From positions 8,410-72,409 of the IMG/VR virus record IMGVR_UViG_2767802758_000001: a stretch of DNA of 64,000 bases, one strand, 5' to 3'. Source of the DNA: a virus (lineage: Duplodnaviria; Caudoviricetes). The position numbers and the translations under genes are program-made. Numbering within the stretch: the stretch's first letter is position 1; the number at the start of each line of letters is the position of its first letter. The notes below the pieces were generated by a model. It searched no databases. It was not told the origin of the DNA and worked only from the letters and a program-made list of their open reading frames with translations. This document shows, piece after piece, positions 12,031 to 62,538 of this stretch.

Positions 12031-12031
12031 T

Positions 12032-25090: not shown

Positions 25091-25133
25091 CTTGTGTCAG
25101 GCACAATCATCGACGCCACAGGAGACAGGTCAA

Positions 25134-39325: not shown

Positions 39326-40309
39326 TCAATCCAGTTTTGCTGCGATGTCTGTTGGTGATTGGCGATAGTAGATCATCAGGCTGCGCGGGTCGCGGTGGCC
39401 GACCATGCGAGCCAACTCTAAAATGTCGAGCTTCTTTGAAAGTCTAGTAATAGCGGTAGCCCTTGCGTCATGGAAGGTCGGGCCAGAAATGCCGGCCAAA
39501 TCACGCCCGGAACGATAATAGACATCAAGTAGGGCTGATGTCAGATCAAACACTTTTTCGTCGTGCACACCCTCCATTGCTTTGAGCAATTCGATTGCTC
39601 GACGCGATAAAGGCACATACCGATCGTCACTGTTTTTGGTGCTGGCCAGATAGGCGGTGCGCTTCTCATAGCTGATGCAGTTCCAGGTCAAGCTGATAAT
39701 CTCACCTGCGCGCATTGCTGTTTCGAGCGATAGCAAAAGTGCCACTGCAGCTTGCTGCCGTCGACTGGCTGGTCTGCCACCGGAATACCCGAGCGCATCG
39801 ACAATTCGTTCTACTTCTCCTTCCTCGAAAATCACCGTGCGCGGTTTGCTTGCTGCTGGCTTGGTCACCTCTGGCCAAGGGTCATGATCAACATAGCCCC
39901 ATTCGCCCTTTTTTGCTTGCTTCCAAATGGCACGCAGCGATCCGATCTCACGCAGAACTGAGGCTGGTTTCACTGACTCTAGACGCCGGTCCCGCCAGGC
40001 AGCAAGGTCCGGTGCGCCGATGTCTTGCATAATGAGCTTTGCAATGTCGTCGCGTTGAATGGCTTTCAGCCTGAGTATTTCCTTGTCTCCACTGGCCTTG
40101 GTGGGGCTCACTTGAGTGATGTATCTTTCCAACACATCGTGCAATGTCCAGCGGATAACCTTGCCGGCTCGCATGGCTGTAATTTCGGCCTCACGCTTGG
40201 ATGCCCATTCTTGGGCTTCTCTTTTGGTGGGGAAGGTCGCGCTTTCTCTGAGCCCTTTTTTAACGATCTCAGCGCGCCACCCGTTGCCGCTCTTTCTAAA
40301 CGAAGCCAT
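39326..40309 (-). CDS. int: Tyrosine integrase with arm-binding N-terminus
   Basis: AMRAGE, TKN, FHDARAT, GHRD, IYY catalytic motifs. Confidence 0.95.
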   Translation of the reverse strand: MASFRKSGNGWRAEIVKKGLRESATFPTKREAQEWASKREAEITAMRAGKVIRWTLHDVLERYITQVSPTKASGDKEILRLKAIQRDDIAKLIMQDIGAPDLAAWRDRRLESVKPASVLREIGSLRAIWKQAKKGEWGYVDHDPWPEVTKPAASKPRTVIFEEGEVERIVDALGYSGGRPASRRQQAAVALLLSLETAMRAGEIISLTWNCISYEKRTAYLASTKNSDDRYVPLSRRAIELLKAMEGVHDEKVFDLTSALLDVYYRSGRDLAGISGPTFHDARATAITRLSKKLDILELARMVGHRDPRSLMIYYRQSPTDIAAKLD

Positions 40310-40465: not shown

Positions 40466-40544
<79 letters not shown>

Positions 40545-40890: not shown

Positions 40891-41211
40891 TTATTTGCGT
40901 TGATAGCGCTTGCTACCTGTGCTGGTTTCGCAATAGCGGCCCCCACGCGGGCCCGTGCAATAGGTGCCACTGGCACATGTGCAAGCGCTGTTTGACAGCA
41001 GCGTTTGTGGAGCCGATGGCGAACTTCGTCCTGTTGTACCGATGTACGCGGGGCAAGATCGTTTACTGCCGCTGGCAGAACCATCACGGCATACAAAAAC
41101 CTCCCCCTCGCAATGGGAGATACCGCCTTTTTTGCCTGAACAGGGGGTATTTCGTGCCTGTGTATCGAGAGGTAGCAGTGCCATGATCAGGCACAGGAAC
41201 AAGCATTTCAT
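40891..41211 (-). CDS. Secreted Cys-rich protein (YdcA-like)
   Basis: Signal peptide; NTPCSGKKGGISHC and CTGPRGGRYC. Confidence 0.75.
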   Translation of the reverse strand: MKCLFLCLIMALLPLDTQARNTPCSGKKGGISHCEGEVFVCRDGSASGSKRSCPAYIGTTGRSSPSAPQTLLSNSACTCASGTYCTGPRGGRYCETSTGSKRYQRK

Positions 41212-41330
41212 TTTTGTCTCACGCGCCAGGGACGAGCTTGAACCCCCGATGGTTTTGCCATAGAAAGAGCGTTGAAAATACATTTCTTTTTGTGCTCTGC
41301 TGTAATAGCTATTTTATTTTGGATGATGTC

Positions 41331-41633: not shown

Positions 41634-42323
41634 TTATGACCGGCGATAGTATTTCCGGTGTTCCACCATGGTGCCGATAATTTCAATGGCATGCTGGTCG
41701 CTGCGAATGGACGGGTAGTCTTCGTTCAGCGGCACCAGTTCAAAGATTTCTTGCCCGCCTTCATCAATGCACAGGAGGCGGTATTTCTTGAAAGTGGCTT
41801 CTTCTTCACTATTTTTGGCGACGACATAATCACCGGGGCGGGGCGTGAGCTCGCAATCAACAATAATTCGGTCGCCTTCCTTGAAGTCCGGCAACATGGA
41901 GTCGCCCTTGATCTGCAGAGCAAAAGAGCGCTCGGACAGGCACAGATCTGTCAGCAGATACTCTACCTCTTCAAACGTGAAGTTCTGGCCCGGGTCTCGA
42001 AAGACACCTGCCTGCACATAGTTGAGCAGGGGAATGCGCCGCTCGCCCATCATGGCGTTTTGCACGTTGGAGTCAAAATCACGCTTGGCACCATAGCCAT
42101 AGCCTTGTTGATCCAGGCTATGTGCTTCCAGACCCACTTCTTTTTCTATGGCGCGCGCCACTCGTTCGCCAATGCTGCGCCCGCCGTTGTAGGTGGATGA
42201 CAGGTACTGGGCCAACTGCGCCCGTGTGCGCCCAATAGAGCGCGCAAAGTCAGCCGCGTTGCCGTGAGCGCGGTCTTCAATTAGGCGTTGCAGGTTTCTG
42301 CGGCGAATCGAGTAAATATCCAT
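41634..42323 (-). CDS. cI: CI repressor with S24 autopeptidase (RecA-cleavable)
   Basis: N-terminal HTH; VQAG cleavage site; KGDSM (Ser) and ATFKKY (Lys). Confidence 0.95.
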   Translation of the reverse strand: MDIYSIRRRNLQRLIEDRAHGNAADFARSIGRTRAQLAQYLSSTYNGGRSIGERVARAIEKEVGLEAHSLDQQGYGYGAKRDFDSNVQNAMMGERRIPLLNYVQAGVFRDPGQNFTFEEVEYLLTDLCLSERSFALQIKGDSMLPDFKEGDRIIVDCELTPRPGDYVVAKNSEEEATFKKYRLLCIDEGGQEIFELVPLNEDYPSIRSDQHAIEIIGTMVEHRKYYRRS

Positions 42324-42347
42324 ATTCAACATTAAAACAAGAAAAAA

Positions 42348-42385
42348 CTAAACATTGGTTTAGATATTTCTTTTCTTTACGTTTA
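42348..42385. promoter_or_regulatory. Operator region of element 2
   Basis: Palindrome CTAAAC-ATTG-GTTTAG and near-palindrome TTCTTTACGTTTAGAA; TTAGATATTTCT recurs inverted at 42586-42597. Confidence 0.55.
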
Positions 42386-42405
42386 GAACTATCTATACTC
42401 AACAC

Positions 42406-42597
42406 ATGAACGCTAAACACATCATCGAAGAAATGGGCGGTCGCCGAGCCGTACTGCGTATCACAGGCTTGAGCAAAGGCCGCATATCTCAATGGGAGAA
42501 GGCCGGTGTCATTCCTCGCGTTTGGCAACTGGTGTTCCATCACATGAACCCGGTGGTGCCTGCCCCAGCACCCAAAGAAAGTTCTAGAAATATCTAA
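42406..42597 (+). CDS. cro: Cro-like protein
   Basis: IIEEMGGRRAVLRITGLSKGRISQWEKAGVIP. Confidence 0.85.
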   Translation: MNAKHIIEEMGGRRAVLRITGLSKGRISQWEKAGVIPRVWQLVFHHMNPVVPAPAPKESSRNI

Positions 42598-43033
42598 GCA
42601 TTCAAGATGGGGTTGGCTTGTAAGCCGAACCTGACAGATCGGCTGTGTCATGGGGTGACACAGTTCTTGTGCCCTTGGGGCATTGCCTATTAATCGGATG
42701 TTCTTGGCCTGTTGGGGTCAGGGGTCCTGCTGCGCGCCACATGTTTGCAAACAGATCTCAGGCGTGTGGCATTTCATTCCGGGATGCCATGAAAAAACAT
42801 ATTGAAAGCCACTGGCCGCAGGCGATGGGGTCGCCGCCCAAGCAGCTTGTGTCAGAACCAATCGCTGTACAGCCTTTGCCGTTGCTCAGGCAGGTCGTGC
42901 CGAAGGGCCAAGCCCTTGTCCGACTGGTTTATCGCCCGGGTATGCCGTCTTGTCACCCAGCCCGACAGAAACTGGGAGTGCAGCCTGTGTGGGCTTGGGC
43001 ACAGCAGAACGTAAAACAGGATGGAGCGTGCCG

Positions 43034-43831
43034 ATGAGCAATATGCCGTGGTTTCGTGCCTACACCGAGATGGTGGATGACGAGAAGTTGCGTCTACTGG
43101 CTTTTGAGGACAGATGGCACTACGTCGCCTTGCTGTGTCTGAAGGGGCAGGGCGTGCTCGACAGTGGGGACACCCTGATGCTGCGCAAGGTGGCCGTCAA
43201 GCTGGGTCTGGACCTGCGCACCTTGGATGATGTCGTGCGTCGTTTAAGCGAAGTGGGCTTGATCGACCCAGAGACTTTGCAGCCCTTGGCGTGGGACAAG
43301 CGTCAGATGAAATCTGACAGCAGCGCAGAGCGCGTGGCGCGCTTTCGGGCCAGAAAAAAGCAGGAACAAGACGGTAAGGAGGGCAGTAGCGCGCCCGTAA
43401 CGTTACCGAAACGGCCAAGTAACGCGCTAGATAAAGAGACAGATAAAGAAGGAGAGACAGATACAGAAAAAGATAAAGAAAAAACAAATGCGCGGCGCAA
43501 GGCTCCGGCGCTGGAGTTCTCTGCCTGGCCTGCTGAGCCCAGTGCAGAAGTGGTCGCGGATTATCTGCGCCATCGTCGCGAGATCAAAGCTCCCTTGACG
43601 CAAACCGCCTTGAATCGCCTGGGCGCCGAGGCCCACCGGGCGTTGGAGATGGGTTACAGCGTCGATGACTTTCTGGCCGAGTGCATGTTGCGTGGCTGGC
43701 GTGGGGGCAAGGCTAGTTGGCTGGAAGGGCGTAATGAGTCCCGTGCAGGGCAAGCATCGGGTTTTGACCCCCTGGCCTATGTGAACCGTCATCGGCAACG
43801 CGAGGAGATAGACGATGTCATCGATGTCTGA
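43034..43831 (+). CDS. Replication initiator (O-like, DnaT-like C-terminus)
   Basis: MPWFRAYTEMVDDEKL N-terminus, charged repeat linker, CMLRGWRG. Confidence 0.85.
   Translation: MSNMPWFRAYTEMVDDEKLRLLAFEDRWHYVALLCLKGQGVLDSGDTLMLRKVAVKLGLDLRTLDDVVRRLSEVGLIDPETLQPLAWDKRQMKSDSSAERVARFRARKKQEQDGKEGSSAPVTLPKRPSNALDKETDKEGETDTEKDKEKTNARRKAPALEFSAWPAEPSAEVVADYLRHRREIKAPLTQTALNRLGAEAHRALEMGYSVDDFLAECMLRGWRGGKASWLEGRNESRAGQASGFDPLAYVNRHRQREEIDDVIDV
43397..43487 (+). repeat. Origin-like repeats inside the element 2 initiator
   Basis: GTAACGTTAC palindrome, second GTAACG, and three AGATAAAGA copies in a purine-rich tract. Confidence 0.55.
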
Positions 43832-44522
43832 TTTTTCTAACCCCTGGCTGCTGCGTCACACCAAGCTGGAAGGCATCAGCCTGATGGACCATTTGTACAA
43901 CCGGCTCAATGGCATTTATCCCAACAAATTCCGCTCCAACTTCCGCGACAAGCAAGCCATTGAAGACTGGAAGCAAGCCTGGGCCGAGGCCTTTGATGAA
44001 GAGGGCGTCTCGCCCACGGATGTGGCACTGGGCATCAAGAATTGTCGCCGCATGTTCGATTGGCCACCCAGCTTGCCGGAGTTCTTGCGGGCCTGCCGTC
44101 CTCAACTGGAACCAGAGACTGCCTTTTTTCAGGCCGTGCGTGGCATGCAGGCACGGGTGCGAGGAGAAATGGGCGAGTGGTCGCACCCGGCGATCTATTA
44201 CGCGGCAATCAGTATCGGGCAGTTTGATTTGCTGAATCAGGCTTACACGCAGCTGGAGCAGCGTTGGCACAAAGTTCTGGGCGATCAACTGGCCAAAGGG
44301 CAATGGCCAGAAATCCCGCCGCCCCGATTGGCTTTGTCTTCACCACAAGACAGAGAGCAAGGCCGTCGGGAAGGACAGCGACGCGTACGCGATCTGGCCC
44401 AGGTTATTTCAGGCGACAACAACAAGGACCCGCGAGTCTGGGCGAACCGGATCTTGGCGCACCCCCAAGAGCGTTCTCTGGCGGTGCTGAAAATGGCTAA
44501 AGCCGCCTTGGGCAAGGAGTGA
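43815..44522 (+). CDS. Replication protein P-like (helicase loader)
   Basis: WKQAWAEAF...WPPSLPEFLRACRP; WSHPAIY. Confidence 0.8.
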   Translation: MSSMSDFSNPWLLRHTKLEGISLMDHLYNRLNGIYPNKFRSNFRDKQAIEDWKQAWAEAFDEEGVSPTDVALGIKNCRRMFDWPPSLPEFLRACRPQLEPETAFFQAVRGMQARVRGEMGEWSHPAIYYAAISIGQFDLLNQAYTQLEQRWHKVLGDQLAKGQWPEIPPPRLALSSPQDREQGRREGQRRVRDLAQVISGDNNKDPRVWANRILAHPQERSLAVLKMAKAALGKE

Positions 44523-44525
44523 GTT

Positions 44526-44849
44526 ATGGATCTGACAACACCGCTTCATCAAAAAGTGCGTAGGCCTATCACCGGAACACCGGCCCATCGCTACAAGGAG
44601 CTACGGGTTTTGCAGCAGCGCGGACAGATCAGGCAATTGGTACAGCAACCATCCTGGAGCCTGGTGCCCCGGTTTTTCAGCCACCTGATGCCTGCCAGCA
44701 GGATTTGCTACATCGCGGACTTTGCCTACACGGATAGCAGGAGCGGCCGTCGCATTGTGGAGGTAGGCCGCCATACACACAGTCTGTTTCAAGGTATCAA
44801 ACGTGTCTTGCTGACCTGGATGCACGGCATCACCGTCCAGCGTGCCTGA
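44526..44849 (+). CDS. Degenerate DUF1064 homolog, catalytic motif lost
   Basis: Aligns to 11695-12030 (YIADFAYTD, HGITV) but EDAKG is replaced by EVGRH. Confidence 0.7.
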   Translation: MDLTTPLHQKVRRPITGTPAHRYKELRVLQQRGQIRQLVQQPSWSLVPRFFSHLMPASRICYIADFAYTDSRSGRRIVEVGRHTHSLFQGIKRVLLTWMHGITVQRA

Positions 44850-44862
44850 AGGAGGAGTACAC

Positions 44863-45243
44863 ATGACAATCAAAGCAGAAAACAAACAGGGCCTAAGCGG
44901 CGATGATCTGCTCTGGAACTGGGCCCGCTGGTGCTGGTCCGGGCAGACAGTGGGCAATATGGAGCGCTACGTTCCCTGGCAAGAGGACTTTCGGCCCATA
45001 CACCAGGACCATGCTCTGGCGGTGGATGCCTTGTACCAGCGCCTGCCGCACTATCAAGCCATGGTCATACAGGCCGAGTACCCACGCAAGAATGCCCAGT
45101 ACGGCCATCTGACCGCCAGCGAACGTCAGGCCACAGCCCGTTTGTGGATCAAAAAGGTGACTGGTGCGGTCCTTCGGGATGAAGACTACCGCCGCCATTT
45201 GATGGATTTCAGAATCACAGTCGAGAAGGAGATTTTGCGGTGA
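44863..45243 (+). CDS. Q-like late gene regulator
   Basis: Close paralog of 12180-12539; GGAGGAG RBS. Confidence 0.65.
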   Translation: MTIKAENKQGLSGDDLLWNWARWCWSGQTVGNMERYVPWQEDFRPIHQDHALAVDALYQRLPHYQAMVIQAEYPRKNAQYGHLTASERQATARLWIKKVTGAVLRDEDYRRHLMDFRITVEKEILR

Positions 45244-45488
45244 AGTATGCAGCCGAAGTCATAGACCTGTTAGCGGCCTATCCGGGACGAGAGTTCCGCA
45301 TGATTCAGATTGTGCGGCATGTCAGCAAAGGCATGGATCTGTCCACTGCACAACGCAACGCCATGCGCGAAGGCGTCAAGCGCGTGCTGGTGCAACTGCA
45401 GGATTCAGGCCAGGTGGACAAGATCAAAGAGGGCGAAACCTCTGCCTTTTACGCGTGGCGTTGCAGTCTGCAACATGGCCCGCTATGA
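45240..45488 (+). CDS. Winged-HTH protein
   Basis: Paralog of 12536-12844 (MKYAAEVIDLLAAYP). Confidence 0.7.
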   Translation: MKYAAEVIDLLAAYPGREFRMIQIVRHVSKGMDLSTAQRNAMREGVKRVLVQLQDSGQVDKIKEGETSAFYAWRCSLQHGPL

Positions 45489-45546
45489 ATCTGCAAGCAC
45501 AATTGCAATAATGGGCGTGCAAAGTTGCGTCCAATGCAAACGAAAC

Positions 45547-45580
45547 AACCCCGAGCAAGAAATTGCGGCGGGGTTTTTTT
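45547..45580 (+). terminator. tR'-like terminator before the tail operon
   Basis: AACCCCG...CGGGGTT followed by T run. Confidence 0.6.
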
Positions 45581-45658
45581 ATGCCTGGTCACAGCAACCT
45601 ATAGTCGTCGATTCGCCATCGGGAAGATGGCCAGGACCGTTCAGGAGAACTACACAAG

Positions 45659-46078
45659 ATGAACTTTGAACAGATCAGTAACGCCATTATTGATCGAATG
45701 GCGGCATTGACCGGGATTGCTCAGGAGTGCATCGAGTACCCCAATGCTCACGCGGCCTTTATCCCGCCGGATACGGGTGTCTGGTGCCGTTTGCTGATCA
45801 AGAATACCGACTCGGAAATGTCGGGCATGGGTGCGAAACCCTACACCCGCAAATCCGGCGAGATTCTGATCGAGTGCTTTGATCGTTTGGGTCAGGGGCG
45901 TCAGGAACTGGATCGCCTGAGCGATGCCCTGGATGAACACTTTTCCTTTTGGTCTGAGGGGGCGTTGGAATGCCTGGGCCTAAGCCATGTCGATGTAGCG
46001 GCGGATGACCCGCAAAAACGGCCACAACGAGAAGAGTTCTACCAGATCAACCTGACCGTCCCGTTCCGGGCTGGTTAA
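45659..46078 (+). CDS. Tail terminator-like protein
   Basis: IEYPNA...FIPPDTGVWCRL...YQINLTVPFRA; AGGAG RBS. Confidence 0.75.
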   Translation: MNFEQISNAIIDRMAALTGIAQECIEYPNAHAAFIPPDTGVWCRLLIKNTDSEMSGMGAKPYTRKSGEILIECFDRLGQGRQELDRLSDALDEHFSFWSEGALECLGLSHVDVAADDPQKRPQREEFYQINLTVPFRAG

Positions 46079-46146
46079 TTTTTTACCTGTTTTTTGTGCC
46101 GACCTCGCGTCGGTTTTTTTTTGCCTGCATACAGGAGAGATGCATT

Positions 46147-47070
46147 ATGAGTTCTGGCGCTAAAGTTACTAGCTACCTGGTTAAAGAAACCGTTCCCGGT
46201 GTGACTCCCGGTTCGGGCTGGCAGACGCTGCGCGTCACCGGCAACACACTGACTCCTACCCTGAACAAAGAGGAGTCCGAAGAAATCACCGATTCGCGCA
46301 TTGGTCAGGGTTCGATCGTGACCAGTATTGATATTGGTGGTGACATCACGGGCGAACTGTCCTACGGCACTTTTGACGAGCTGCTGGCGGCCGCCTTCTA
46401 CGGCGAGTGGAAAGAAAACAAGCTGAGCGTGGGCGAGACCCGCAGCACCTTCAGCGTGGCCAAAGCCTATCGTGACGTGGATGTCTACGCTCTGTTCAAG
46501 GGTGCACATGTCAGCACCTTTGCTCTGGAAGTGCTCGAGGAAGGCAAAGCCACCGTGACCTTCACGATGTCTTGCCTGGATTACGAAGACAAGGAAACTC
46601 CCTTTGCCACCGATCCGGCTGAACCCAGCCAAACCCCTTTCATGTCCTCGATCAGCGTGGGCGATGTGAAGGCCAATGGTGTGTCTCTGGCTGGCCAGGC
46701 TTGCGTGTCGGGCCTGACCCTGAACATTGACAACCAACTGCAGACCCAACGCTGCTTTGGTGCCGAGCGTTTGGGCCCCGGCGCCCTGATCGAGACCGCA
46801 GCCGCCATCACCGGCACGGTGACTCTGGCTTGGTCTCAGAAGGCGTGGGAGCTGTGGAAGAATCAGTTCAAACGCACCCCGATCGCCATTTCCTTCCCGA
46901 TCACCGACACCCTGGGCAACAAATACGAGATCGATCTGCCCGCCATTGAAGTTGATGGTGATCTGCCTAACGGTGCCAAGGGCGACATTCTGAAAGTGGA
47001 GCTGAACTTCACCGTGGCCAAGCAAACCCCCGTGCTGACTCGTAGCCCAGTTGCTGCGCCTGCACCTTAA
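46147..47070 (+). CDS. Major tail tube protein (non-contractile)
   Basis: MSSGAKVTSYLVKETVPG...ESEEITDSR; AGGAGAG RBS. Confidence 0.85.
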   Translation: MSSGAKVTSYLVKETVPGVTPGSGWQTLRVTGNTLTPTLNKEESEEITDSRIGQGSIVTSIDIGGDITGELSYGTFDELLAAAFYGEWKENKLSVGETRSTFSVAKAYRDVDVYALFKGAHVSTFALEVLEEGKATVTFTMSCLDYEDKETPFATDPAEPSQTPFMSSISVGDVKANGVSLAGQACVSGLTLNIDNQLQTQRCFGAERLGPGALIETAAAITGTVTLAWSQKAWELWKNQFKRTPIAISFPITDTLGNKYEIDLPAIEVDGDLPNGAKGDILKVELNFTVAKQTPVLTRSPVAAPAP

Positions 47071-47081
47071 GGAGCGATGGC

Positions 47082-47555
47082 ATGGCTTTGAAGATTAATC
47101 GCCTGGAATCGGTTCTGAGTCAGGAGCGGTGGGAGGATTACACCGATGACGTGTCCTTCAAACTGACCCGACTGGATACCGAGGCCTATCAAATTGCTCT
47201 GGAGCGAGTGCGACGTTTGATTGCCCGTGAAGATGCGGGCCAATCCCTGAGTTCCATTCAGGTGTCCGAGAGTGATGTCCGTGAGCATGACATTCAATGT
47301 CAATTGCTGGGTCGTTACATTATTCGGGATTGGAAAGGTCAGATTCAGGACGAGACCGGTCGTCAGGTTCCTTATTCGCCAGAGAATGCGGCGGCTTTGC
47401 TGTCTGGCGATAGCGATCTTTTTACCTGGGTTCTGTTGCACGCGGCTCAGTTGGCTAAAGAGGCTCAAGAGGAGGTCAAGGAAACAGTGGAAAAGTCCTC
47501 GCCCGGTTCCAGTGGGAAAAAGAGTGGGCCGGGCCAAGCCAAAAGCGCAAGCTGA
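47082..47555 (+). CDS. Tail assembly chaperone (gpG-like)
   Basis: Position after tail tube; IIRDWKGQIQD. Confidence 0.8.
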   Translation: MALKINRLESVLSQERWEDYTDDVSFKLTRLDTEAYQIALERVRRLIAREDAGQSLSSIQVSESDVREHDIQCQLLGRYIIRDWKGQIQDETGRQVPYSPENAAALLSGDSDLFTWVLLHAAQLAKEAQEEVKETVEKSSPGSSGKKSGPGQAKSAS

Positions 47556-47806
47556 TCTATGCGGAGCTGGGGACAGCCGTGCCGCCAGAGGCTCCCTCTG
47601 ATCCGATTACTGACCACATCATCATGACTTATCACGCGGCCAGCCGTTGTCGATCTGTCGTGATGGGGATGAGTGGTGTCTTTCCCTTGCCATTGAGTAC
47701 GGCCGATATTTCGGCCGTGGTCGGTGCTTACGGGACACCCTTGTCTCGTGCCGAGCTGGATGCTGCGGTATTGGCGATTGATGGCATGGAGCGTCAGAAG
47801 TCCTAA
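47489..47806 (+). CDS. gpT-like -1 frameshift extension of the chaperone
   Basis: Open -1 frame from GGAAAAG (47489-47495) reads GKVLARFQWEKEWAG...PLPLSTADI. Confidence 0.65.
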   Translation, partial: GKVLARFQWEKEWAGPSQKRKLIYAELGTAVPPEAPSDPITDHIIMTYHAASRCRSVVMGMSGVFPLPLSTADISAVVGAYGTPLSRAELDAAVLAIDGMERQKS

Positions 47807-47997
47807 GTTTGGCTTGTTATCTGGGCAGTCGAGCGGCTTGTGTAAGGCTGCTCGACTGCCCGATGTTCTGTTCAGGCGATGAGGAGAACAAGAACGAGTG
47901 ATTGCTTCACATAGTTAGTGTTGATGGCCCCGCCTGGGTTGGCGGGGCCTTTTTGTAGGCGAGAGATGCAGCGCAGACAAGCCTATTTTCTATAGTC

Positions 47998-49827
47998 ATG
48001 GAACCCAAAAATATGAAACAGCAGATCGCGGATCTGGAAAAGGCAATGAAGGCGCTTGATAAAGCGGGCCTGCGTCTTTCAGTGACGACTGTCAAAGCTG
48101 GCAACGCACTTGCTGATGCAGGGAACCAGTTTGCCCTGGCTGGGAAAAAGGCCAAAGCCAGTGCGCAAGCTATTGATCAGTTTATTCAGGCTTTGGATAA
48201 GGCCCTGCCCAAACGCCCTGTGGCGTCTCAGCCACCCATTGTGGTGGTGAATACAGTTGCCCCCCCTGTAGCAGCTCTTAGCCGACCTGTGAATGCACCC
48301 TCTACGGCTCCTGCTCCTGCTCCAGCCAGCACAGCGCCCAAGAAGGCTTCTTCTGGCAGCTCCAGCAAGAGTGATGAGGACAAAGGATGGAATGCAGGTC
48401 GTAAGGCGGCGATTGCCAAATACATCGAGGCAGCCTCTGATATGGCGACTCCGATGGAAAGCATTATGACCAATGCCTTTAGCAATCTGGAAAAAGGCCT
48501 GTTTGACTTCGTCAAGACAGGCAAATTCAACTGGAATGCCTTACTGGTTGGTGTAGCGGATGAGGCGCTGCGCATGTTGATCAAGGCCGGTATTGGAGCC
48601 GTGCTGGAGACGATCAGCGGGCCGAAGAAAAAAGAAGATGATGCTGCCGCCAAAGCCACCAAAGCAGTTAGGGATAAAGCGGAGCAGATACCTGCTGCAG
48701 CAGCGCAGGACTGTGTGCCTTGTTGCTGCACCGGTGGCAATCCTCTTGCTCCGATGCCGGATCCAGGTACGAATTTGTATGGCTTGCGTTTACCTGGCCT
48801 GACCCGGTTTGCGAATCCGAATGAAGACATAAATGCCCCCATGTTCGGCACCCGCTTGCCGGGCTATGGCAGCTATCCAGCCATGCCAGGAACCCCGACT
48901 CCCGGGTTTGGTACGTATTCCAATATGTTTGGTTCGCGCCTGCCCGGGTTTGGGGCAGAACCTTTCTCTTTGGATGGGCATGTGCCTGGTTTTGGGGGGA
49001 TGGGTGGCCCCGGTCCGACCTACGGCGGAAGTGGCTCATTCTTTGGACCACAGCCGGGGGCTTTACTTGGAGGTGGTGGGTCTTCGGATGCTGCGGGTAC
49101 CTCTTTCTTTACCGATGAGCTGCGCAAGTTTTCGGAGACGGCAATTGATGTGTCCGCGCTGACGCAGCAAGTGTTTGAGACCGCTTTTGAGAATATTGAA
49201 CAAACCCTGTTCAATTTTGTGAAAACAGGTGAGCTGGATCTACGTGGCCTGTTTGTCGGGATTAGCGATGAGGTCTTGAAGATGTTGATCAAGATCGGTG
49301 TACGAATGGCGGTCAATGCGATGTTGGGTGAAACCATAGGTGCAACAACTACCGCGACCAGCACCGCTCAAGCCGCCACTATTGCGGGGGCTTGGAGTGC
49401 GCCAGCCAGTTTGGTTTCTTTGGCTACTCAAGGTGCTAATGCTGTCCCGGCATCTTTAGGAATAGCAAATACGTTTGCTTTGACGAATCTTATGGGTGTT
49501 GCTCATAAAGGTATCGATCGTGTGCCGTATGAGGGAACCTGGTTGCTGGATAAAGGTGAGCGTGTGTTGAGCGCCCGTCAGAACTCGGATCTGACGGATT
49601 ACCTGCAGGACGCCGGTAGTGACTCAGGACAGGCTGGGGCCCAAGGATTCCAGATTAATGTGGCAGTCAATATGTCGCAAGGCGATGGCCAGACGCAGGT
49701 GGATGGCGACGATATGCAGGGCCGGCAGTTGGGGACGCTGATTGCTGCTCAAGTGCAGCAGACTTTGTCGCGTGAAATGCGACAAGGCGGCTTGTTATGG
49801 AATCAACGCAATGGATATTCACGATGA
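47998..49827 (+). CDS. Short, remodelled tape measure protein
   Basis: Two lambda-type TMP C-terminal domains (FVKTG motif) and AHKGIDRVPYEGTWLLDKGERVL. Confidence 0.85.
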   Translation: MEPKNMKQQIADLEKAMKALDKAGLRLSVTTVKAGNALADAGNQFALAGKKAKASAQAIDQFIQALDKALPKRPVASQPPIVVVNTVAPPVAALSRPVNAPSTAPAPAPASTAPKKASSGSSSKSDEDKGWNAGRKAAIAKYIEAASDMATPMESIMTNAFSNLEKGLFDFVKTGKFNWNALLVGVADEALRMLIKAGIGAVLETISGPKKKEDDAAAKATKAVRDKAEQIPAAAAQDCVPCCCTGGNPLAPMPDPGTNLYGLRLPGLTRFANPNEDINAPMFGTRLPGYGSYPAMPGTPTPGFGTYSNMFGSRLPGFGAEPFSLDGHVPGFGGMGGPGPTYGGSGSFFGPQPGALLGGGGSSDAAGTSFFTDELRKFSETAIDVSALTQQVFETAFENIEQTLFNFVKTGELDLRGLFVGISDEVLKMLIKIGVRMAVNAMLGETIGATTTATSTAQAATIAGAWSAPASLVSLATQGANAVPASLGIANTFALTNLMGVAHKGIDRVPYEGTWLLDKGERVLSARQNSDLTDYLQDAGSDSGQAGAQGFQINVAVNMSQGDGQTQVDGDDMQGRQLGTLIAAQVQQTLSREMRQGGLLWNQRNGYSR

Positions 49828-50165
49828 TGGAAACATTTACTTGGCTGCCTGAGCAAAAGGCAATTTCTGAGGAGGTTCAGTACCGTGTGCTCTCCGCTCG
49901 TTTTGGCGACGGCTATGAGCAAAGCGCAGGTGCTGGTCTGAACCCGCGACGGTCTGGCTGGTCTTTGATGTTTGTTGGTACCGAGGAGAAGATGAAGCCT
50001 ATTCAGGAGTTCCTGGACCGCCATGGTGAGGGGCGCGCTTTTCTTTGGACTCCACCAGGTTGGAGTGAGGCTATGGTGGCGCAGTGTCGCGGTTATACCA
50101 AAAATCATAGAGGTGGCCCTGTTTGGCAACTGTCACTCAGTTTTGAACAAGGATTTCGACCATGA
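49824..50165 (+). CDS. Minor tail protein M (distal tail)
   Basis: RFGDGYEQ...GLNP...AFLWTPPG. Confidence 0.9.
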   Translation: MMETFTWLPEQKAISEEVQYRVLSARFGDGYEQSAGAGLNPRRSGWSLMFVGTEEKMKPIQEFLDRHGEGRAFLWTPPGWSEAMVAQCRGYTKNHRGGPVWQLSLSFEQGFRP

Positions 50166-50905
50166 GCATAACGGCAGATATTCAAAAACTGGAACCAGGT
50201 GCCATTGTTGAAGTGTTTGAGCTGGATGCGGAGGAAATCGGTGCTGGTACCTTACGTTTTCATGGCTATCCGCAAGAAACTCCGGTTTGGTGGCAGGGAG
50301 AGCGCTACGAGCCCTGGGCCATTCAAGCCAGCGGTTTTCAACGTACGGGAGAGGGGCGTCAGCCAACGCCCAGTATTCAGGTAGGCAATATTGGTGTGGA
50401 TGAGAATGGTAAGAAAATCCCGGGTGTGATTTCTGCTATGTGTCGCTTGTATGGTGACTTGGTCGGTACACGATTTATCCGCCACCGTACCCTGGTCAAG
50501 TATCTGGATGCGGCCAACTTCCCTGAAGGTAACCCGACCGCAGACCCGACCCAGGCGTTCCCGCTGGAGGTCTGGTTGATTGAGCAGCGTGTTGCCAGCA
50601 ATGCTCAGTTTGTGGAGTTTGAGCTATCCAGTCCTTTGGACTTTCAGGGGCAGCAATTGCCAGGGCGCCAAATCATGACGTATTGCTCCTGGACGCGTGT
50701 GGGCGGGTACCGTGGCCCGTATTGTGGCTATACCGGTTCGGCCATGTTCGACAAGAATGATCAACCCGTACAGGATCCGGCCCTGGATCGTTGCCCCGGT
50801 TTTGTACGCAGTTGCCAGTTGCGCTGGGCCAGTGTCCAGAATTGTCGGCCAGAGCAAGCCGAGATCTCTTTTGGTGGTGAACCCGCTGCTGACCGAGTGC
50901 GATAA
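50162..50905 (+). CDS. Minor tail protein L
   Basis: FELSSPLDFQGQQLPGRQI...C...YRGPYCGY...DRC...SCQLR Cys pattern. Confidence 0.9.
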   Translation: MSITADIQKLEPGAIVEVFELDAEEIGAGTLRFHGYPQETPVWWQGERYEPWAIQASGFQRTGEGRQPTPSIQVGNIGVDENGKKIPGVISAMCRLYGDLVGTRFIRHRTLVKYLDAANFPEGNPTADPTQAFPLEVWLIEQRVASNAQFVEFELSSPLDFQGQQLPGRQIMTYCSWTRVGGYRGPYCGYTGSAMFDKNDQPVQDPALDRCPGFVRSCQLRWASVQNCRPEQAEISFGGEPAADRVR

Positions 50906-51080
50906 GGATGAGCTTGGCCCGTCGTACTTGTCCTCTGTTAAGCAATAGTTGGCTGCTGGAGGGTGGGTACTGCGGGCTGACCTTCAACTGATAGACGAGC
51001 CAGGTTGTGGTGTTCGGGGTTTTTTGATTTTAGTAAAGCGTTGGACGACCGCCATGGGCGGTTTTTTTTATGGGTGTCGT

Positions 51081-51863
51081 ATGAATAAAAAAACCATAGA
51101 AGCGATTAATGCGCACGCCTTGGCCGAGTATCCACGCGAAGCAGTGGGCTTTGTGGTGGCCAAGGGGCGCAAGGAAATGTATGTGCCAGGAGTGAATGTG
51201 GCCGCTGAGCCTGAAGACTACTTCGCCACCCGTCCGCAAGACTGGGTACAGGCCCAGGAGCAGGGTGAGTTGATTGCCTTTGTGCATTCGCATCCGAACA
51301 TGCCCGCGGTGCCCAGTCAGGCTGATCGGGTGGCATGCGAGGCAATGGCCGAGCACGTCAAACCTCTGGAGTGGCTGATTGTGTCGGTGATGCCTGGCGA
51401 TGATGGTCCCCAGATTGAGGGCATGGAGTCTTTTTGTCCCGAGGGTTATCAGGCTCCCTTGATCGGCCGTCAGTTCTATCACGGTGTGCTCGATTGCTAC
51501 ACCTTGGTACAGGATTTTTATCACCGGGAAAGGGCAATCGCTCTGCCAGACTTTGAGCGTGAGGATGGCTGGTGGGAGGGTGGGGACGAGTTGTATTTGG
51601 ATAACTTTGCAAAAGCGGGTTTTGTTGAGATCGAAGACGGCCCTAAAACTGGCGATGTGATCTTGATGCAGCTGCGTAGTGAGCGGGTCAACCATGCAGG
51701 GATTTATCTCGGGGCTGAGCCCTTGGCAGAAGCTTCTTATCTGCATCCGGTACCCGATGCCATGTTGCACCATGCCTACGGCTACTTGTCAGAGCGCGTG
51801 CCTTACGGCGGTTATTGGGCGCAGATTACCCGCAAGATTATTCGACATAAGGAGTTGTTGTGA
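51081..51863 (+). CDS. Tail assembly protein K (JAB plus NlpC/P60)
   Basis: YPREAVG, VHSHP, DCYTL, NHAGIY. Confidence 0.9.
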   Translation: MNKKTIEAINAHALAEYPREAVGFVVAKGRKEMYVPGVNVAAEPEDYFATRPQDWVQAQEQGELIAFVHSHPNMPAVPSQADRVACEAMAEHVKPLEWLIVSVMPGDDGPQIEGMESFCPEGYQAPLIGRQFYHGVLDCYTLVQDFYHRERAIALPDFEREDGWWEGGDELYLDNFAKAGFVEIEDGPKTGDVILMQLRSERVNHAGIYLGAEPLAEASYLHPVPDAMLHHAYGYLSERVPYGGYWAQITRKIIRHKELL

Positions 51864-52465
51864 TGATGGCAGCATCAATGGATCAAGAACTGCGAACCAT
51901 ACGGCTGTATGGCAAGCTTGGCAGCCGTTTTGGACGGGTGCATCGTTTGGCCGTCAATTCCCTGGCCGAGGCCGTAAGGGCCTTGTGTGTGCTGTTGCCA
52001 GGATTTGAGCAGGAGTTGATGACTTCTTGTGAGCGGGGGGTCTCGTACGCCTGCTTTCTTTCCAAGATGAACATCAATGAAGAAGCGCTTCATGCCCCGG
52101 TGGGCCAGGATGAAATACGGATTGCCCCTGTCATGCAAGGCGCCAAGCGAGGGGGGCTATTTCAAACTATTTTGGGTGTAGGACTTTTTGTAGCAGGGTT
52201 TCTGATGCCAGCAAGCTGGGCAGTTTTGGGCAAGGGCTTGATGATTGCTGGCGCGGGGCTGGCCCTGGGAGGAGTGTTCCAAATGATTTCTCCTATGCAG
52301 CAAGGTCTGGGTATAGAAGACCGCCCAGAGAATAAGCCTTCCTACAACTTTAATGGACCAGTCAATACAACGGCTCAAGGTAATCCTATTCCGCTCGGTT
52401 ATGGACGAAAGTTTGTTGGTAGCGCTGTCGTGTCTGCCGGGATTTACTCAGAGGATCAGATGTGA
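51863..52465 (+). CDS. Tail assembly protein I
   Basis: IRLYGKLGSRFGR...NTTAQGNPIPLGYG. Confidence 0.9.
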   Translation: MMAASMDQELRTIRLYGKLGSRFGRVHRLAVNSLAEAVRALCVLLPGFEQELMTSCERGVSYACFLSKMNINEEALHAPVGQDEIRIAPVMQGAKRGGLFQTILGVGLFVAGFLMPASWAVLGKGLMIAGAGLALGGVFQMISPMQQGLGIEDRPENKPSYNFNGPVNTTAQGNPIPLGYGRKFVGSAVVSAGIYSEDQM

Positions 52466-55400
52466 TGCGACTTCCTGATTACAACATTGCGGCGCCTGAG
52501 GGCGCCGTTCCTGTTTCGGGTGGCTACAGCGTTAAAGGCCACAAGGGTGGTAAAGGAGGGGGAGGCTCCACACGAACACCGGTTGAAGATGCCGATAACC
52601 TGCATAGCATTGCTTATGCCTCTATTGTTGACCTGATCAGTGCGGGCCCAATTCATGGTTTTGCGCATGAAAATAGCCCGCTACGTTCTGTATACCTGGA
52701 TAACACGCCGATTCAAAATGAGGATGGCAGCTTGAATTTCCAGGATGTTCAAATGGAGTTTCGAGCTGGGACGCAAGACCAAAGCTATATACCTGGTTTT
52801 CCAGCCGCTGAGTCTGCTACGGCTGTGAATGTGGAGTTGCGTTCTGATCAGCCGTTTACACGCGCCATCCAGAATATTCATATTTCTGGTTTACGAGTGG
52901 GATTGTCGGTGCGTGGTCTCAAACAGCAATCCAAGAAAACAGGCGATATCACAGGGTATCGAGTTGAATATGTGATTGAGCTGTCTACAGACAATTCGGC
53001 TTTTGTTGAAGTGTTGCGGGCATCCTTTGATGGCAAGACTACTCAACAGTACTCGCGCAGCCATCGTATTGATTTACCCCGTGCAACGACAGGCTGGTCA
53101 GTCCGTGTGCGTCGGCTGACCTCTAATGCCAGTAACTCGACCATTAGCGATACGACTTATATAGACTCGATTACCGAGGTGACTGATGCCAAGCTTCGTC
53201 GCCCCATGTCAGCATGCATAGGTCTACGAGTTAATGCCAAGCAGTTTCAAAGTATTCCGTCTCGTGCATTTGATCTGTATCTGCGTGTTGTCCGTGTTCC
53301 TAGCAACTACGATGCCTGGACTCATACCTATAGTGGTAGCTGGGATGGTACGTTCAAAATGTCCTGGACGGACAATCCTGCCTGGGTTTTTTATGACCTG
53401 GCGACTAATGCATGCGACGGTTTAGGGCGCTTGTTGCCAGCCTCCTGGTTGGATAAATGGGCCTTGTATCAGATTGCTCAGTATTGTGATGAGCAAGTTC
53501 CCGATGGTAAAGGAGGTACTGAACCACGCTTCTCTTGCAACGTGTATTTGCAGGATAAGGCTGAGGCTTGGAGAGTGTTGCAGGATCTGGCCTCTGTTTT
53601 TCGAGGCATTGCCTATTATGCTCAGGGAACTGTGTTGGCCGTGGCTGACATGCCGCGCGATTCCGTATACACCTACTCCAATGCCAATGTTGTGGATGGC
53701 ATCTTTAATTATGCAGGGTCCAGTCTCGCAACCCGTTATACCGTTGCCCTTGTGTCCTGGAATGATGAAACGGACATGGGCAGAGCCAAGGTTGAAGTGC
53801 TTGAAGACCCTGACGGCATTGCACGTTACGGTGTTCGACAACTGGAGCTGACTGCTTTTGGGTGTACCTCCCAGGGGCAGGCACAGCGCATGGGGCGAAG
53901 TGCCTTGTTTACCTCCCGGATGGAAACTGAAACGGTTACTTTCGGCGTTGGTTTGTCAGGGACACTCGCACAGCCTGGGCAAATTATTGAGATTGCGGAT
54001 GCTCATTTGGCTGGGCGTCGTATTGGTGGTTTGGTACGGTCTGCCACAAAATCGGAAGTCGTGCTGGATGCCACAGTGAAGGTTGCTGCTGGAGATCGTC
54101 TGACTGTTGTGTTGCCAGATGGTGTGTCGCAGTCACGTCCCATTGTGATTTCCTCGCAAGAGGCTACTGAAACCCAAACTGTCCAAGTTGACCCGCCCTT
54201 TAGTCTGGAGCCAGAACCAGAAGCGGCATGGGCTATTAGTGCAGCCGATCTGTCGACCCAGAAGTATCGGGTTATCAGTGTTGCCGAAGACGGTGATCTT
54301 AAGTACACCATCCATGCTGTCCAGTATGTGGATGGAAAACATGCCGCGATCGACTATGAAACTCGTGTGGAAACTGCACCGGTTAGCGTTGTTCCGCCGC
54401 CTGTTCAGAGCATTCCGGGCAATGTTTCAATCACTTCGTATCATGTTATTGATCAGGGTCAGGCCCGACATAATGCGGTGATTTCCTGGGACGCTGTTCC
54501 TAATGCTGTTGCCTATGAAGTGCAGTGGCGTCGGGATAATTCCGAGTGGGTTGTTGTACCGCGTACAGGTTCCACCAGTGTTGAAATCCCTGGTATCTAT
54601 GCAGGTGCGTATCGTGCGCGTGTACGTGCAATTAACGTCCTGGATGTGTCCAGCCTGTGGGGCAATTCAGATCTGATAGAGCTGTCTGGCAAGCTGTTGG
54701 CGCCTTTGCCTGTAACAGATCTGAGGACTGGCTCCATTCCTTGGGGTATACAAGTTAAATGGAGTTTTCCGGCCGATCCGAACATCATTGAGCGCACCGA
54801 GATCAGGTATAGCTCGACACAAAGCTTTGTAGATTCGCTGAGCGCCGGTGGTTTTGCGTATCCGACAGACTCATTCGAGCAAACAGGTTTGGCGGTGACG
54901 GCGCAGCATTTCTTTTGGGCACGCCTGATCGACAAAAACGGTACTCAAGGACCGTGGTTCCCGGCAGAGTCAGAGCCTGGTATCCGGGGTGTGCCTTCTG
55001 TATTAGCCAGTGACTATAACGAGTTGATCACCCCGTCCATAGTTGAGGGCGGCCTGGGCGAGCTGCTGATGGGCGACATCCGCGATATCCCCAAAATCCG
55101 CGATTCCGTGGGAGATCTGACTCTTGAGCTCGGTGAACTGAATCAACGGGTTGATGAGGTCAATGGCCAAGTACAAGAGCTGCTTCTTGCTGATAAATGG
55201 GATTCGAAAAAAGCCTATGCAGCAGGTTCAGTTGTCTTTGCCAATGACAAGATGTACCGCGCTAAAAAGGCTGTACCGGCAGGCAAGAAGATAACGGATG
55301 CGGCGTATTGGGTGTTGATCGGAGACTTCGCCTCGATCACTGATGGTCTTGCTGCTCTGGCGGTCCAGTCGCAGGAGACGATCAGCCGGGTGGAGAGTGC

Positions 55401-57417: not shown

Positions 57418-57513
57418 AGATGTTGATAGCGGCGGGAGTGGCTGGGGTTAGTGTAGCTGGTATGACCTATTTCCTGGTCATGCCCCATAGGAACAATGGA
57501 CAAGGACTCAGAT

Positions 57514-57825
57514 ATGTCACAAGGTTTGCAGACGTTCGGGCCTGATGGCTCTATTGAGCTGGACTTGAGCACTCAGATGCTCATTCATCAAGGAACCTTT
57601 GTAAGTAACCAATCTGTGGGCTCCTTTAACGTACCGGCGTTTAGAGGAGGACGAGGCTTTGTCACAGCCATTATTACTAGCTCGGAGCCTTATTACAATT
57701 TCTTGGTTTACGTGGACATGGAGTTGGTGGTTACTAATTTGGGGTTTACTTGGCAGCATAAAGTTAGTGACCACATACAAGAGAATTACCCGAACACCTA
57801 TACATTTATCTACGGGACCTACTGA
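57514..57825 (+). CDS. Tail tip accessory protein
   Basis: MSQGLQTFGPDG motif typical of post-J genes; lower GC. Confidence 0.7.
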   Translation: MSQGLQTFGPDGSIELDLSTQMLIHQGTFVSNQSVGSFNVPAFRGGRGFVTAIITSSEPYYNFLVYVDMELVVTNLGFTWQHKVSDHIQENYPNTYTFIYGTY

Positions 57826-58508
57826 TGACAACGGCAGGTATTCAGGTTATCAGTGATCATGGTAGCCAACAGATCACCTCTGAGACGAGTAATCTTAAAC
57901 TCATTGGCCGTTTCTGGCCTCATGAGACTAAAGTATCTCCACATTGGGAAACAGCACCAGCACGGGAGTCGGTATACGAGAACAGAGTATCTTTCTTCTC
58001 TCCGTCTTACCAAGCACCCTTAGTTTTCTTCCCTAACGACCAAGGCCCTTGTTGGCTTTCTGGTATTACTGATGACGGTGGTGGTAATTTCACCGTTTAC
58101 TGGACGAGTCTGCGAATGGGTACCAGCGTAGTTACTTATGGTCCGTTTCACGGTAGTAGTGATCGGGGAATTTTGGAAGTGTATAAAAGCGATGGCTCCC
58201 TGGCTTTCTCTACAGGCAGCAAGTTCCTGAAAATTGAGAGCATTTTCGGGCCGCAGACGGAGATATCAACGTGGGTAGGGCTGGGGGCTAAGGCCGTGGC
58301 GGCGTCTACCTATCCTTCTAGTTTCTTTATCTTTCCATCTGAGCCTGCTTACTGGAACAGGTATATGGGTTGGGTGTTTATTGATAATGGGCAGTTGAAG
58401 ACAAAAGCCACAAATCTGCATTCTACGATTTCAGCTCCTATTCTCTCAGCCATGGGGCCTAACTTATCCCCACGCTACTACACAGTCATTGATATTTCAG
58501 GAATTTAA
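57825..58508 (+). CDS. Tail tip accessory protein
   Basis: AGIQVISDHG and internal GILEVYKSDGSLAFST repeat; stop/start overlap. Confidence 0.7.
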   Translation: MTTAGIQVISDHGSQQITSETSNLKLIGRFWPHETKVSPHWETAPARESVYENRVSFFSPSYQAPLVFFPNDQGPCWLSGITDDGGGNFTVYWTSLRMGTSVVTYGPFHGSSDRGILEVYKSDGSLAFSTGSKFLKIESIFGPQTEISTWVGLGAKAVAASTYPSSFFIFPSEPAYWNRYMGWVFIDNGQLKTKATNLHSTISAPILSAMGPNLSPRYYTVIDISGI

Positions 58509-58567
58509 GTGGTTCTATCAATGGAATATTTCTAGCCGCCTGAAGCGGCTTTTTTTATGGGTGTTTA

Positions 58568-58768
58568 ATGAGTATTCACAAATCCATCGCGCAGGTTTTC
58601 GAGAACAACATGGGTAATCGCCTCACGCCAGAGTTGGCTGGCGGCATGATTCGTAGCCTGATCGATATTCTCGCCACGGGTGTACAGCAGGCCGGCGATT
58701 CTCAGCAGCAGATCGAGGCGGCATCTGAGGCCCAGCTTCAGCAGGAGGGCGGCAATGGCGTGGTATGA
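58568..58768 (+). CDS. Small conserved protein preceding tail fibre
   Basis: NMGNRLTPELAGGMI motif. Confidence 0.65.
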   Translation: MSIHKSIAQVFENNMGNRLTPELAGGMIRSLIDILATGVQQAGDSQQQIEAASEAQLQQEGGNGVV

Positions 58769-60242: not shown

Positions 60243-60357
60243 CGTTTAAGGCTATGACAGTGGTGCCTAGTTCTAATAATTCCCGCACATGCGGGTTTTT
60301 TTTAGTGCTGATTGTTTGTAGCCAGGTGGCAAGCATACGATACATAGGAGGATAGCA

Positions 60358-61593: not shown

Positions 61594-62009
61594 TGAACAT
61601 CATCATCAAACTATGCCCACAGGTCCCTGTGGGTACGGCCCAAAAGCTTAATCTTGAGCGTTTGGGCACCATCCTGAAAATTAATGAGCAAGAGCTTGGC
61701 TTGTCTTTTCTGTCTCCTGGCGACGTCCTGCCAGCCGGCGCAATCGAGCATCCCTTGTTGAAGCAGGCCACGGTTACGCGTCATGCTGACAGCATCGAGA
61801 TTGATGGTCTGCTTTTTCATATCGCAGCGGATCAAACAGCTCCGGCAGCGTGTTTTCCTGAACCGGTCGTGATTAGTGAGGATGGTCTGGTTGTATTACC
61901 CGAACAGTGCCCACCGCCAGTACCTGCTCCAGAACTGCCGCCTGAAACTGATTTTGAGACACATCCTGAGTCTGACATGAAGGAGGAAATCGATGCAGAT
62001 CAACATTGA
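61593..62009 (+). CDS. Tail fibre-associated protein
   Basis: LSPGDVLPAGAI motif; TAATG overlap with fibre 2. Confidence 0.65.
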   Translation: MNIIIKLCPQVPVGTAQKLNLERLGTILKINEQELGLSFLSPGDVLPAGAIEHPLLKQATVTRHADSIEIDGLLFHIAADQTAPAACFPEPVVISEDGLVVLPEQCPPPVPAPELPPETDFETHPESDMKEEIDADQH

Positions 62010-62418: not shown

Positions 62419-62538
62419 TCCGCATCGCAGTTTCGTGAATGTTGTTGCCCCGGCCCGCTTGAGCGGGTTTTTTTATGTCTGCTGCATCCATAAAAAGGAT
62501 GCAGCAGACAGGGCAAGTTTGATTAAGGAGAAGGGCCC

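Follow-up and report, generated by a model that had tools for sequence, protein, structure and literature searches.

Tailocins have been described as lacking nucleic-acid replication genes (review, PMC12090994), and the classical examples, the R- and F-type pyocins of Pseudomonas aeruginosa, are SOS-inducible headless clusters of tail and lysis genes at a fixed site. Rhizoviticin of Allorhizobium vitis VAR03-1 (Ishii et al. 2024) is a published tailocin that both keeps and needs replication genes, since deletion of its initiator-like, helicase and RuvC genes abolishes tail-gene transcripts and killing, by a mechanism that was left open (PMC10811719). Replication of phage DNA that stays in the chromosome is also on record. 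For example, trapped lambda prophages carry out theta replication in situ from ori-lambda in a P/DnaB-dependent manner (PMC3349717), natural prophages show two-sided amplification of flanking DNA, escape replication producing tent-shaped coverage around Fels-1 (PMC8008629), and run-off replication in Bartonella, which is linked to the gene transfer agent, amplifies nearby DNA in situ from a host-conserved, phage-derived origin (Berglund et al. 2009, PMC2697382). Here we describe a headless tail element of the Alcaligenes faecalis group, located in a 64,000-nucleotide stretch of DNA (hereafter the window) that forms the final 64 kb of a 72.4-kb IMG/VR provirus call, record IMGVR_UViG_2767802758_000001. 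The element carries a lambda-type replication module at 42.3-45.5 kb. A reading of the window made from its letters (hereafter the sequence-only reading) had remarked that such genes are generally missing from characterised tailocins, which agrees with the review, and had proposed that induction would fire an origin in place. Given rhizoviticin, the idea is not wholly new. We consider it reasonably probable that the module is a working, host-retained replicon within a domesticated element that has become fixed beside a tRNA-Met gene.

A lambda-type replication module beside headless tail genes

A headless lambdoid element has its early-right operon at 42.3-45.5 kb, where a cro-like gene is followed by an O-like gene, P, a DUF1064 gene, a possible Q-like gene and orf82 (Table 1). 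Beyond orf82 come a terminator and then, as shown by PHROG and Pfam scans, tail and lysis genes. The tail module comprises the tail terminator, tube, G/T chaperones, tape measure protein, M, L, K, I, J and fibres, and the lysis cassette comprises holin-like genes, an endolysin and a spanin. The tail terminator gene begins 170 bp past orf82 with no head genes between them, and no match to a terminase, portal or capsid was found in the element or in any orthologous locus (22 records). The features by which a tailocin is recognised, namely full tail and lysis genes, the absence of head and packaging genes, and a fixed chromosomal site with conserved flanks, are thus all found here. The review's further description does not hold, as an O-like gene, a P homologue and an origin are present and under selection.

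As the sequence-only reading had supposed, both replication genes are intact. P matches the Phage_lambda_P family at 32.1 bits (cut-off 26, profile positions 2-77 of 162) and phrog_109, labelled 'P-like helicase loader', with an E-value of 2.6e-34. Alignment of a 13-sequence P profile to lambda P with hhalign (probability 88.9%, E 2.4e-6, 174 columns) extended over lambda P residues 38-229 of 233, which is near full length. The start of P overlaps the end of O by 17 nucleotides (nt). For O, the label of phrog_678 is 'replication initiation O-like', the other matches are to DnaD-like or replisome-organiser PHROGs, and more than 1,100 unnamed relatives were found, mostly in Betaproteobacteria. 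An open reading frame (ORF) of 293 amino acids (aa) from 42950 was considered as the O gene and dropped, the conserved ATG at 43034 being the true start. In an AlphaFold model, O has a confident winged-helix-like N-domain (residues 5-113), a helical C-domain (about 160-230) and a disordered linker (115-157, predicted local distance difference test score below 50). This is the two-domain, flexible-linker plan of lambda O, and as in lambda the candidate origin falls inside the linker-coding DNA.

The left chromosomal edge of the element is the tRNA-Met gene, whose 3' end forms the junction with a neighbouring complete prophage (prophage 1); 40466 is exactly where homology with five other genomes of Alcaligenes sets in. 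The sole PF00589 match in the 72-kb record, a tyrosine recombinase at window positions 39326-40309, lies beyond the tRNA gene, and no serine recombinase was found in the record. The position of the homology break, at the 3' end of the tRNA gene, assigns this integrase to prophage 1. Att-like flanking direct repeats longer than 12 bp were not found in the three genomes for which both ends were available. The earlier claim that the element has neither integrase nor att site therefore stands, and the distances given with it were right: the origin lies at 43.4 kb, the tRNA gene at 40.5 kb and the integrase of prophage 1 at 39.3-40.3 kb. A second att copy of the tRNA 3' end was not found for prophage 1 in the 72-kb record, so its boundary was placed by the homology break at 40466. 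Both the record and the window stop 343 bp past the spanin gene, and the right boundary was examined in relatives.

Table 1. Positions of genes and DNA features of the element in the 64-kb window.
Feature	Position	Strand	Support or remark
tRNA-Met	40466-40544	-	Left chromosomal edge of element; ARAGORN, Rfam
Small conserved gene, PRK10040-like	40891-41283	-	phrog_6000; between tRNA-Met and repressor
cI/LexA-like repressor, S24 self-cleavage domain	41634-42332	-	PF00717 (E 1.2e-19), phrog_4
16-bp palindrome CTAAAC-ATTG-GTTTAG	42348-42363		cI/cro divergent control region; read from sequence
cro-like small DNA-binding protein	42406-42597	+	phrog_8008, phrog_409, weak P22_Cro match
Partly conserved non-coding leader, 436 bp	42598-43033	+	Between cro and O
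O-like initiator, 265 aa	43034-43831	+	phrog_678, phrog_10469, phrog_3926
Candidate iterons, four G(T/A)A(A/G)CG boxes	43386-43424		Starts 43386, 43397, 43408, 43419
AT-rich GATAAAGA repeat tract, 55 bp, 67% A+T	43429-43483		TRF and a second repeat search
Lambda-P homologue (DnaB helicase loader), 235 aa	43815-44522	+	PF06992, phrog_109
DUF1064 protein, PHROG label Holliday-junction resolvase-like	44526-44849	+	PF06356, phrog_190
orf133/126	44863-45243	+	Atlas feature match to antiterminator Q family, score 0.92
orf82, small conserved protein	45240-45488	+	phrog_20616
Intrinsic terminator, hairpin and T-run	45547-45582	+	Sequence and fold; between orf82 and tail genes
Headless F-type tail module and lysis cassette	45659-63657	+	PHROGs

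A candidate origin inside the initiator gene

The four boxes within O are spaced exactly 11 bp apart, one helical turn, and form the densest cluster of their motif in the 64-kb window, in which the background is about one per kb. They are followed by the GATAAAGA tract, a candidate unwinding region in which the number of repeat copies differs among strains. Together, boxes and tract occupy O codons 118-150, and the boxes start at nt 353 of O, as compared to nt 349 of lambda O for the lambda iterons. Phased direct repeats followed by an AT-rich region make up an iteron-type layout, and this is the layout of ori-lambda. The origin-like repeats pointed out in the sequence-only reading are real, the array being placed as in Table 1 and refined by the phased boxes upstream of it. 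The same order of boxes and then GATAAAGA recurs in L041 and L043, two complete phages with 63-73% identity in O.

Conservation in this stretch extends to synonymous sites. Among eight loci picked by protein homology, and thus independently of the motif, 18 of the 22 third codon positions at 43386-43452 are invariant versus 83 of 234 elsewhere in O (p=3e-5), while the interval named beforehand in the sequence-only reading, 43397-43487, gives 20/24 versus 81/232 (p=5e-6); the loci are related by descent, so these Fisher tests overstate significance and the p-values are indicative only. The 15 IMG/VR loci described below were left out of the statistic, as the motif had selected them. The pattern points to origin DNA that is constrained beyond the protein code.

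These data bear on the possibility that the two proteins are kept for some role other than copying DNA, with P sequestering DnaB, and so stopping host replication and boosting the SOS response, or with O regulating late expression. Lambda P binds and inhibits DnaB. Moreover, the N-domain of O is a generic winged helix, the trapped-prophage phenotype depends on P and DnaB (PMC3349717), and the rhizoviticin replication genes were scored through transcript levels and killing only, without DNA copy number. However, phased boxes and an AT tract conserved at synonymous sites, with the full anatomy of a lambda origin, fit an origin better than a simple operator, and O, P and origin are kept together in all loci. 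We consider such a non-copying role unlikely.

The module is inherited and selected like a host gene

Both replication genes are under purifying selection, as judged by the ratio of nonsynonymous to synonymous substitution rates (dN/dS, or omega). At a synonymous divergence (dS) of 0.3-0.8, O has a ratio of 0.05-0.08 and P one of 0.036-0.055, which is similar to the repressor and the tail tube. When O+P were compared with six flanking housekeeping genes in the same genome pairs, dS was 0.06 versus 0.17, 0.76 versus 0.71 and 0.97 versus 0.90, respectively, and omega was 0.05-0.07 versus 0.04-0.06. Since the dS of O+P tracks that of the flanks and omega is similar, the module has been chromosomal since the lineages split and has been kept like a host gene. 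The replicon is thus domesticated and not in decay.

It could be argued that O, P and the origin are unneeded and merely hitch-hike between a required repressor/Cro switch and the late regulators, being renewed by recombination with functional phages. Indeed, dS is unequal across segments (relative to the A. phenolicus genome, 0.2-0.3 for tail genes and 0.46-0.62 for O/P), the DUF1064 gene is much more divergent than its neighbours, and tail cassettes have evidently been swapped; there are also related complete phages, namely L041, L043 and, with related cI/cro, G205. However, no complete phage with an O more than 73% identical was found, whereas nt identity in O is 82-100% among 22 headless loci. 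The dS of O+P matches that of the flanking chromosome pair by pair, no locus was found that kept its tails and lost O/P, and a neutral 1.5-kb insert at a dS of 0.7-1.0 should carry stops or frameshifts in most lineages. Taken with these observations, hitch-hiking is a rather unlikely account of the module.

One control module joined to three tail cassettes

In species-representative genomes the locus lies between the same left flank with tRNA-Met and the same right flank, and the shared left flank was also seen in Logan and NCBI contigs (L044 and L046), which supplied further F- and R-type examples. The A. phenolicus genome (G002) has the same F-type architecture as the window, whereas A. faecalis G206 shares the control module and tube with the window and differs in its distal tail. 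In A. parafaecalis (G001) the control module, at 86-96% protein identity, leads directly into an R-type module of sheath, tube, tape measure and baseplate, followed by the same lysis cassette. The origin motif led to a further 15 IMG/VR records, and the same 15, with O/P upstream in every one (15/15), were recovered when orf82 served as the query, a search that is independent of O/P. Frequent pseudogenisation of O/P in orthologous loci, the outcome that the sequence-only reading had named as telling against it, was not seen, as all 22 records have a full-length P (22/22) and all but one a full-length O (21/22).

The replication module is thus joined to three tail cassettes, F-type in two distal variants and R-type, and homology between F-type and R-type loci stops at the terminator, at 45583. 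The cI, cro, O and P genes of the window recur at 99-100% identity in three IMG/VR records (L073, L074 and L087). L073 has an F-type tail, while L074 (3300045596_000295) and L087 (2841105406_000002) bear R-type sheath tails. Therefore, cassettes have been exchanged very recently behind the late terminator.

The position of the locus is relevant to whether the element might be a mobile satellite, excised in trans by the integrase of prophage 1 or by another integrase, replicated as a circle and packaged in the heads of a helper. It has a replicon of its own and a tRNA gene as its neighbour, and in this strain an integrase-bearing complete prophage is 1.1 kb away. But it sits on the 5' side of the tRNA gene and not at the 3' end, neither flanking repeats nor packaging genes were found, and the same chromosomal position and flank-like divergence occur in all genomes, including those without prophage 1. 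We regard a satellite lifestyle as very improbable. Prophage 1 is a strain-specific insertion, absent from beside the element in A. parafaecalis and A. phenolicus.

Two recombinase-like matches were observed in R-type loci. In A. parafaecalis, a tyrosine-recombinase-like ORF (24249-25214 of the L003/G001 concatenate, minus strand), 26% identical to the prophage 1 integrase, sits between the tail-fibre region and the holin/endolysin genes, and may represent either an invertase for fibre switching or what is left of an integrase. A similar match lies downstream of the R-type tail in G005. In this genome, from another Alcaligenes species, there is a second headless R-type element at another locus (L054, 700-5500), next to a 384-aa integrase. 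It too keeps an O-like gene (phrog_678), along with a cro-like gene and a DUF6475/phrog_10105 partner, a replication type that is the same as that of prophage 1 in the window.

With regard to ancestry, distant O/P pairs occur in complete lambdoid phages in the order O, P, DUF1064, two small genes and then terminase, portal and heads. By this comparison the Alcaligenes element is a lambdoid prophage from which the whole stretch between and including the small terminase and the head-tail connectors has been lost, with the break point just past the late terminator. Prophage 1 itself carries, at 10192-12844, an O-like gene, DUF6475 in place of P, DUF1064 and an orf133 homologue, with a small ORF where orf82 would be, followed by a metallopeptidase, a DUF2280 small terminase and a large terminase. 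Two related, heteroimmune lambdoid replicons are thereby present about 33 kb apart in the window.

Proposed in-place replication

The locus has every cis and trans component of a lambda-type replicon, controlled by an SOS-cleavable repressor, and lacks any means of excision. By analogy with lambda biology and rhizoviticin genetics, the most likely function of the module would be amplification of the late operon in place, shortly before lysis. DNA damage would lead to cleavage of the S24 repressor, after which rightward transcription would yield Cro, the O-like initiator, the lambda-P-type loader, the DUF1064 nuclease-like protein and the late regulators. O would then occupy the four phased boxes within its own gene, the neighbouring AT-rich tract would melt and P would bring in host DnaB. 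With neither integrase nor excisionase, and without att sites or heads, the element would have to begin replicating within the chromosome, as escape or onion-skin replication. Just before the cell lyses, this would multiply the flanking DNA as well as the late tail-and-lysis operon, located 2-20 kb rightward, as a template, to the presumed benefit of tail yield.

Trapped lambda prophages share with the Alcaligenes locus a cI-controlled pR, O, P, an origin at the same offset in the initiator gene, and the lack of excision. Those prophages are laboratory mutants in which firing is lethal and maladaptive, in contrast to the Alcaligenes arrangement, which occurs in nature, is conserved and is tied to a tail/lysis operon whose host cell is due to lyse in any case. 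In Bartonella the amplified DNA serves as cargo for head-containing particles, whereas the Alcaligenes element is headless and would presumably benefit through gene dosage. The pyocins resemble the locus in that their R and F types share a regulatory frame, although classical tailocins use PrtN/PrtR-type regulators where the Alcaligenes locus follows a lambdoid plan in its cI/cro and terminator and retains a complete replicon.

Rhizoviticin is the nearest precedent and lends the proposal its strongest support from outside; the likeness is one of analogous gene content. Both are headless flexible-tail and lysis clusters beside a tRNA gene, with a LexA/cI-type repressor and early genes for initiator-like, helicase-function and junction-nuclease-like proteins. 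In rhizoviticin these are a DnaA-HTH-like (helix-turn-helix) initiator, a DnaB-like helicase and RuvC, along with a sigma factor; their counterparts in Alcaligenes are the O-like initiator, the lambda-P loader, DUF1064 and a possible Q-like gene. The rhizoviticin locus still has the remnant of an integrase, and it was interpreted as transitional (PMC10811719). The Alcaligenes module, known from sequence alone, differs in diverging along with the chromosome, in being selected much as housekeeping genes are, in its recognisable origin and in being common to F- and R-type tails. Literature searches for Alcaligenes tailocins and for in-situ replication of tailocins found nothing relevant. What appears to be new is a replicon that forms a long-term, selected and modular part of a tailocin-like locus, common to R- and F-type tails, as well as a recognisable, constrained origin in such a locus.

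On a broader view, we give even chances to the proposal that Alcaligenes tailocins are self-amplifying weapons, in which a selected replicon in a fixed control cassette over-replicates the tail/lysis operon in the chromosome during a suicidal burst of production, while R and F cassettes are interchangeable behind a single late terminator. A less likely extension, and one that we hold to be quite improbable, is that the amplified flank is packaged by the heads of the adjacent prophage, thus spreading the locus. Lateral transduction by prophage 1 is pure speculation, supported by nothing more than geometry: the late genes of this prophage are oriented toward the element, and its terminase carries a Terminase_6C domain.

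Several observations weigh against a working replicon, in addition to the relatedness of the loci used for the third-position statistic. One concerns the identity of O. No similarity to lambda O was detected by hhalign with a 36-sequence profile (probability 0.07), and O has no Pfam family (including PF04492) and no NCBIfam family. A Foldseek search of the model against the PDB returned nothing at E<=0.001, and a wider fold search gave only generic winged-helix matches at Z 6-7.4, in the common-fold range (primosome DnaB 5wtn, Z 7.4; DnaD 2vn2, Z 6.1; MDR initiator 4pta, Z 6.1; winged-helix domains of the origin recognition complex). Because these fold matches are generic, the case for O as an initiator is built on its PHROG labels, on the position of its gene and on the anatomy of the origin. 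The protein is therefore O-like in role and layout and not a member of the lambda O family. PDB sequence searches with O, and likewise with orf133, gave no match. In addition, the conserved stretch within O could serve some other cis function. The segment-wise mosaic of dS reflects recombination, and part of the selection could have acted in phages.

Two damaged copies point in the same direction. The metagenomic record L060 (IMG/VR 3300006061_000014), the one exception to a full-length O, has frameshifts in O, which stops at residue 244, in orf133 and in orf82, and could be either a decaying copy or an assembly error. In one species, G207, a deletion that starts at O codon 44 has removed everything up to and including almost the whole spanin gene, leaving the repressor, the first 44 O codons and the last 41 spanin codons joined directly at the same place in the chromosome (L037, about 10297-11249); the module is therefore dispensable to the cell. 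Both cases would be expected if the element were a neutral remnant, a recently decayed prophage whose replication genes have not yet been lost, and the authors of the rhizoviticin study read their locus as an early stage of domestication. Nevertheless, dN/dS values of 0.04-0.08 at a dS of up to about 1, an origin conserved at synonymous sites, and a module kept across three tail cassettes in 22 records are at odds with such decay. The selection analysis largely refutes the neutral remnant, which we hold to be extremely improbable. Altogether, selection, co-divergence and origin constraint argue against both satellite and remnant, and weaken hitch-hiking.

Control regions and neighbouring genes

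The repressor has a dN/dS of 0.02-0.04, the cro-like protein is 95-100% identical among relatives, and the palindrome between them is a candidate operator. A 130-aa ORF at 42645-43037, in the possible cII slot of the leader, was rejected as a gene, as three-frame translations of five genomes showed no frame open throughout. Within the leader, about 210 nt past cro (42598-42810) are conserved in all relatives without a commonly open frame, and may represent a nut- or terminator-like RNA element, while the following approximately 200 nt are common only to the window and G207. An Rfam scan of 40-48 kb matched only the tRNA. The small gene between tRNA-Met and repressor is under purifying selection (dN/dS about 0.11).

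Constraint is looser on the DUF1064 gene (dN/dS 0.25-0.44), which scores 25.0 bits against PF06356 (cut-off 24.7) and E 3.8e-13 against phrog_190. orf133/126 has no Pfam or PHROG match, a dN/dS of 0.03-0.05 and a homologue that precedes the late genes in prophage 1; it is a possible Q-like late regulator, which we treat as a weak lead only. orf82 is 96-100% identical among relatives. NCBIfam gave no match for O, P, DUF1064, orf133 or orf82. The late control region (45489-45658) contains repeated TGCAA/TTGCA motifs and then the hairpin with T-run, and resembles lambda pR'/tR'. A scan with sigma-70 and terminator consensus sequences performed no better than on shuffled sequences and missed the 45547-45582 hairpin.

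Implications

Tailocins are defined and searched for as clusters without replication genes, and as a result prophage tools call loci of this kind proviruses, as happened with the present IMG/VR record. If the replicon is adaptive, criteria for tailocin discovery would need to change, and retained replication genes would represent adaptive design and not a transitional relic. The requirement for replication genes in rhizoviticin would gain a mechanism, namely gene dosage through in-place replication. The Alcaligenes set is well suited to direct testing, as it offers many strains, identical control modules with different tails and, in G207, a natural deletion that may serve as a natural null allele. 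The module could also provide a practical lever to raise tailocin yields. If our reading is correct, the Alcaligenes element would be a natural example of beneficial escape replication.

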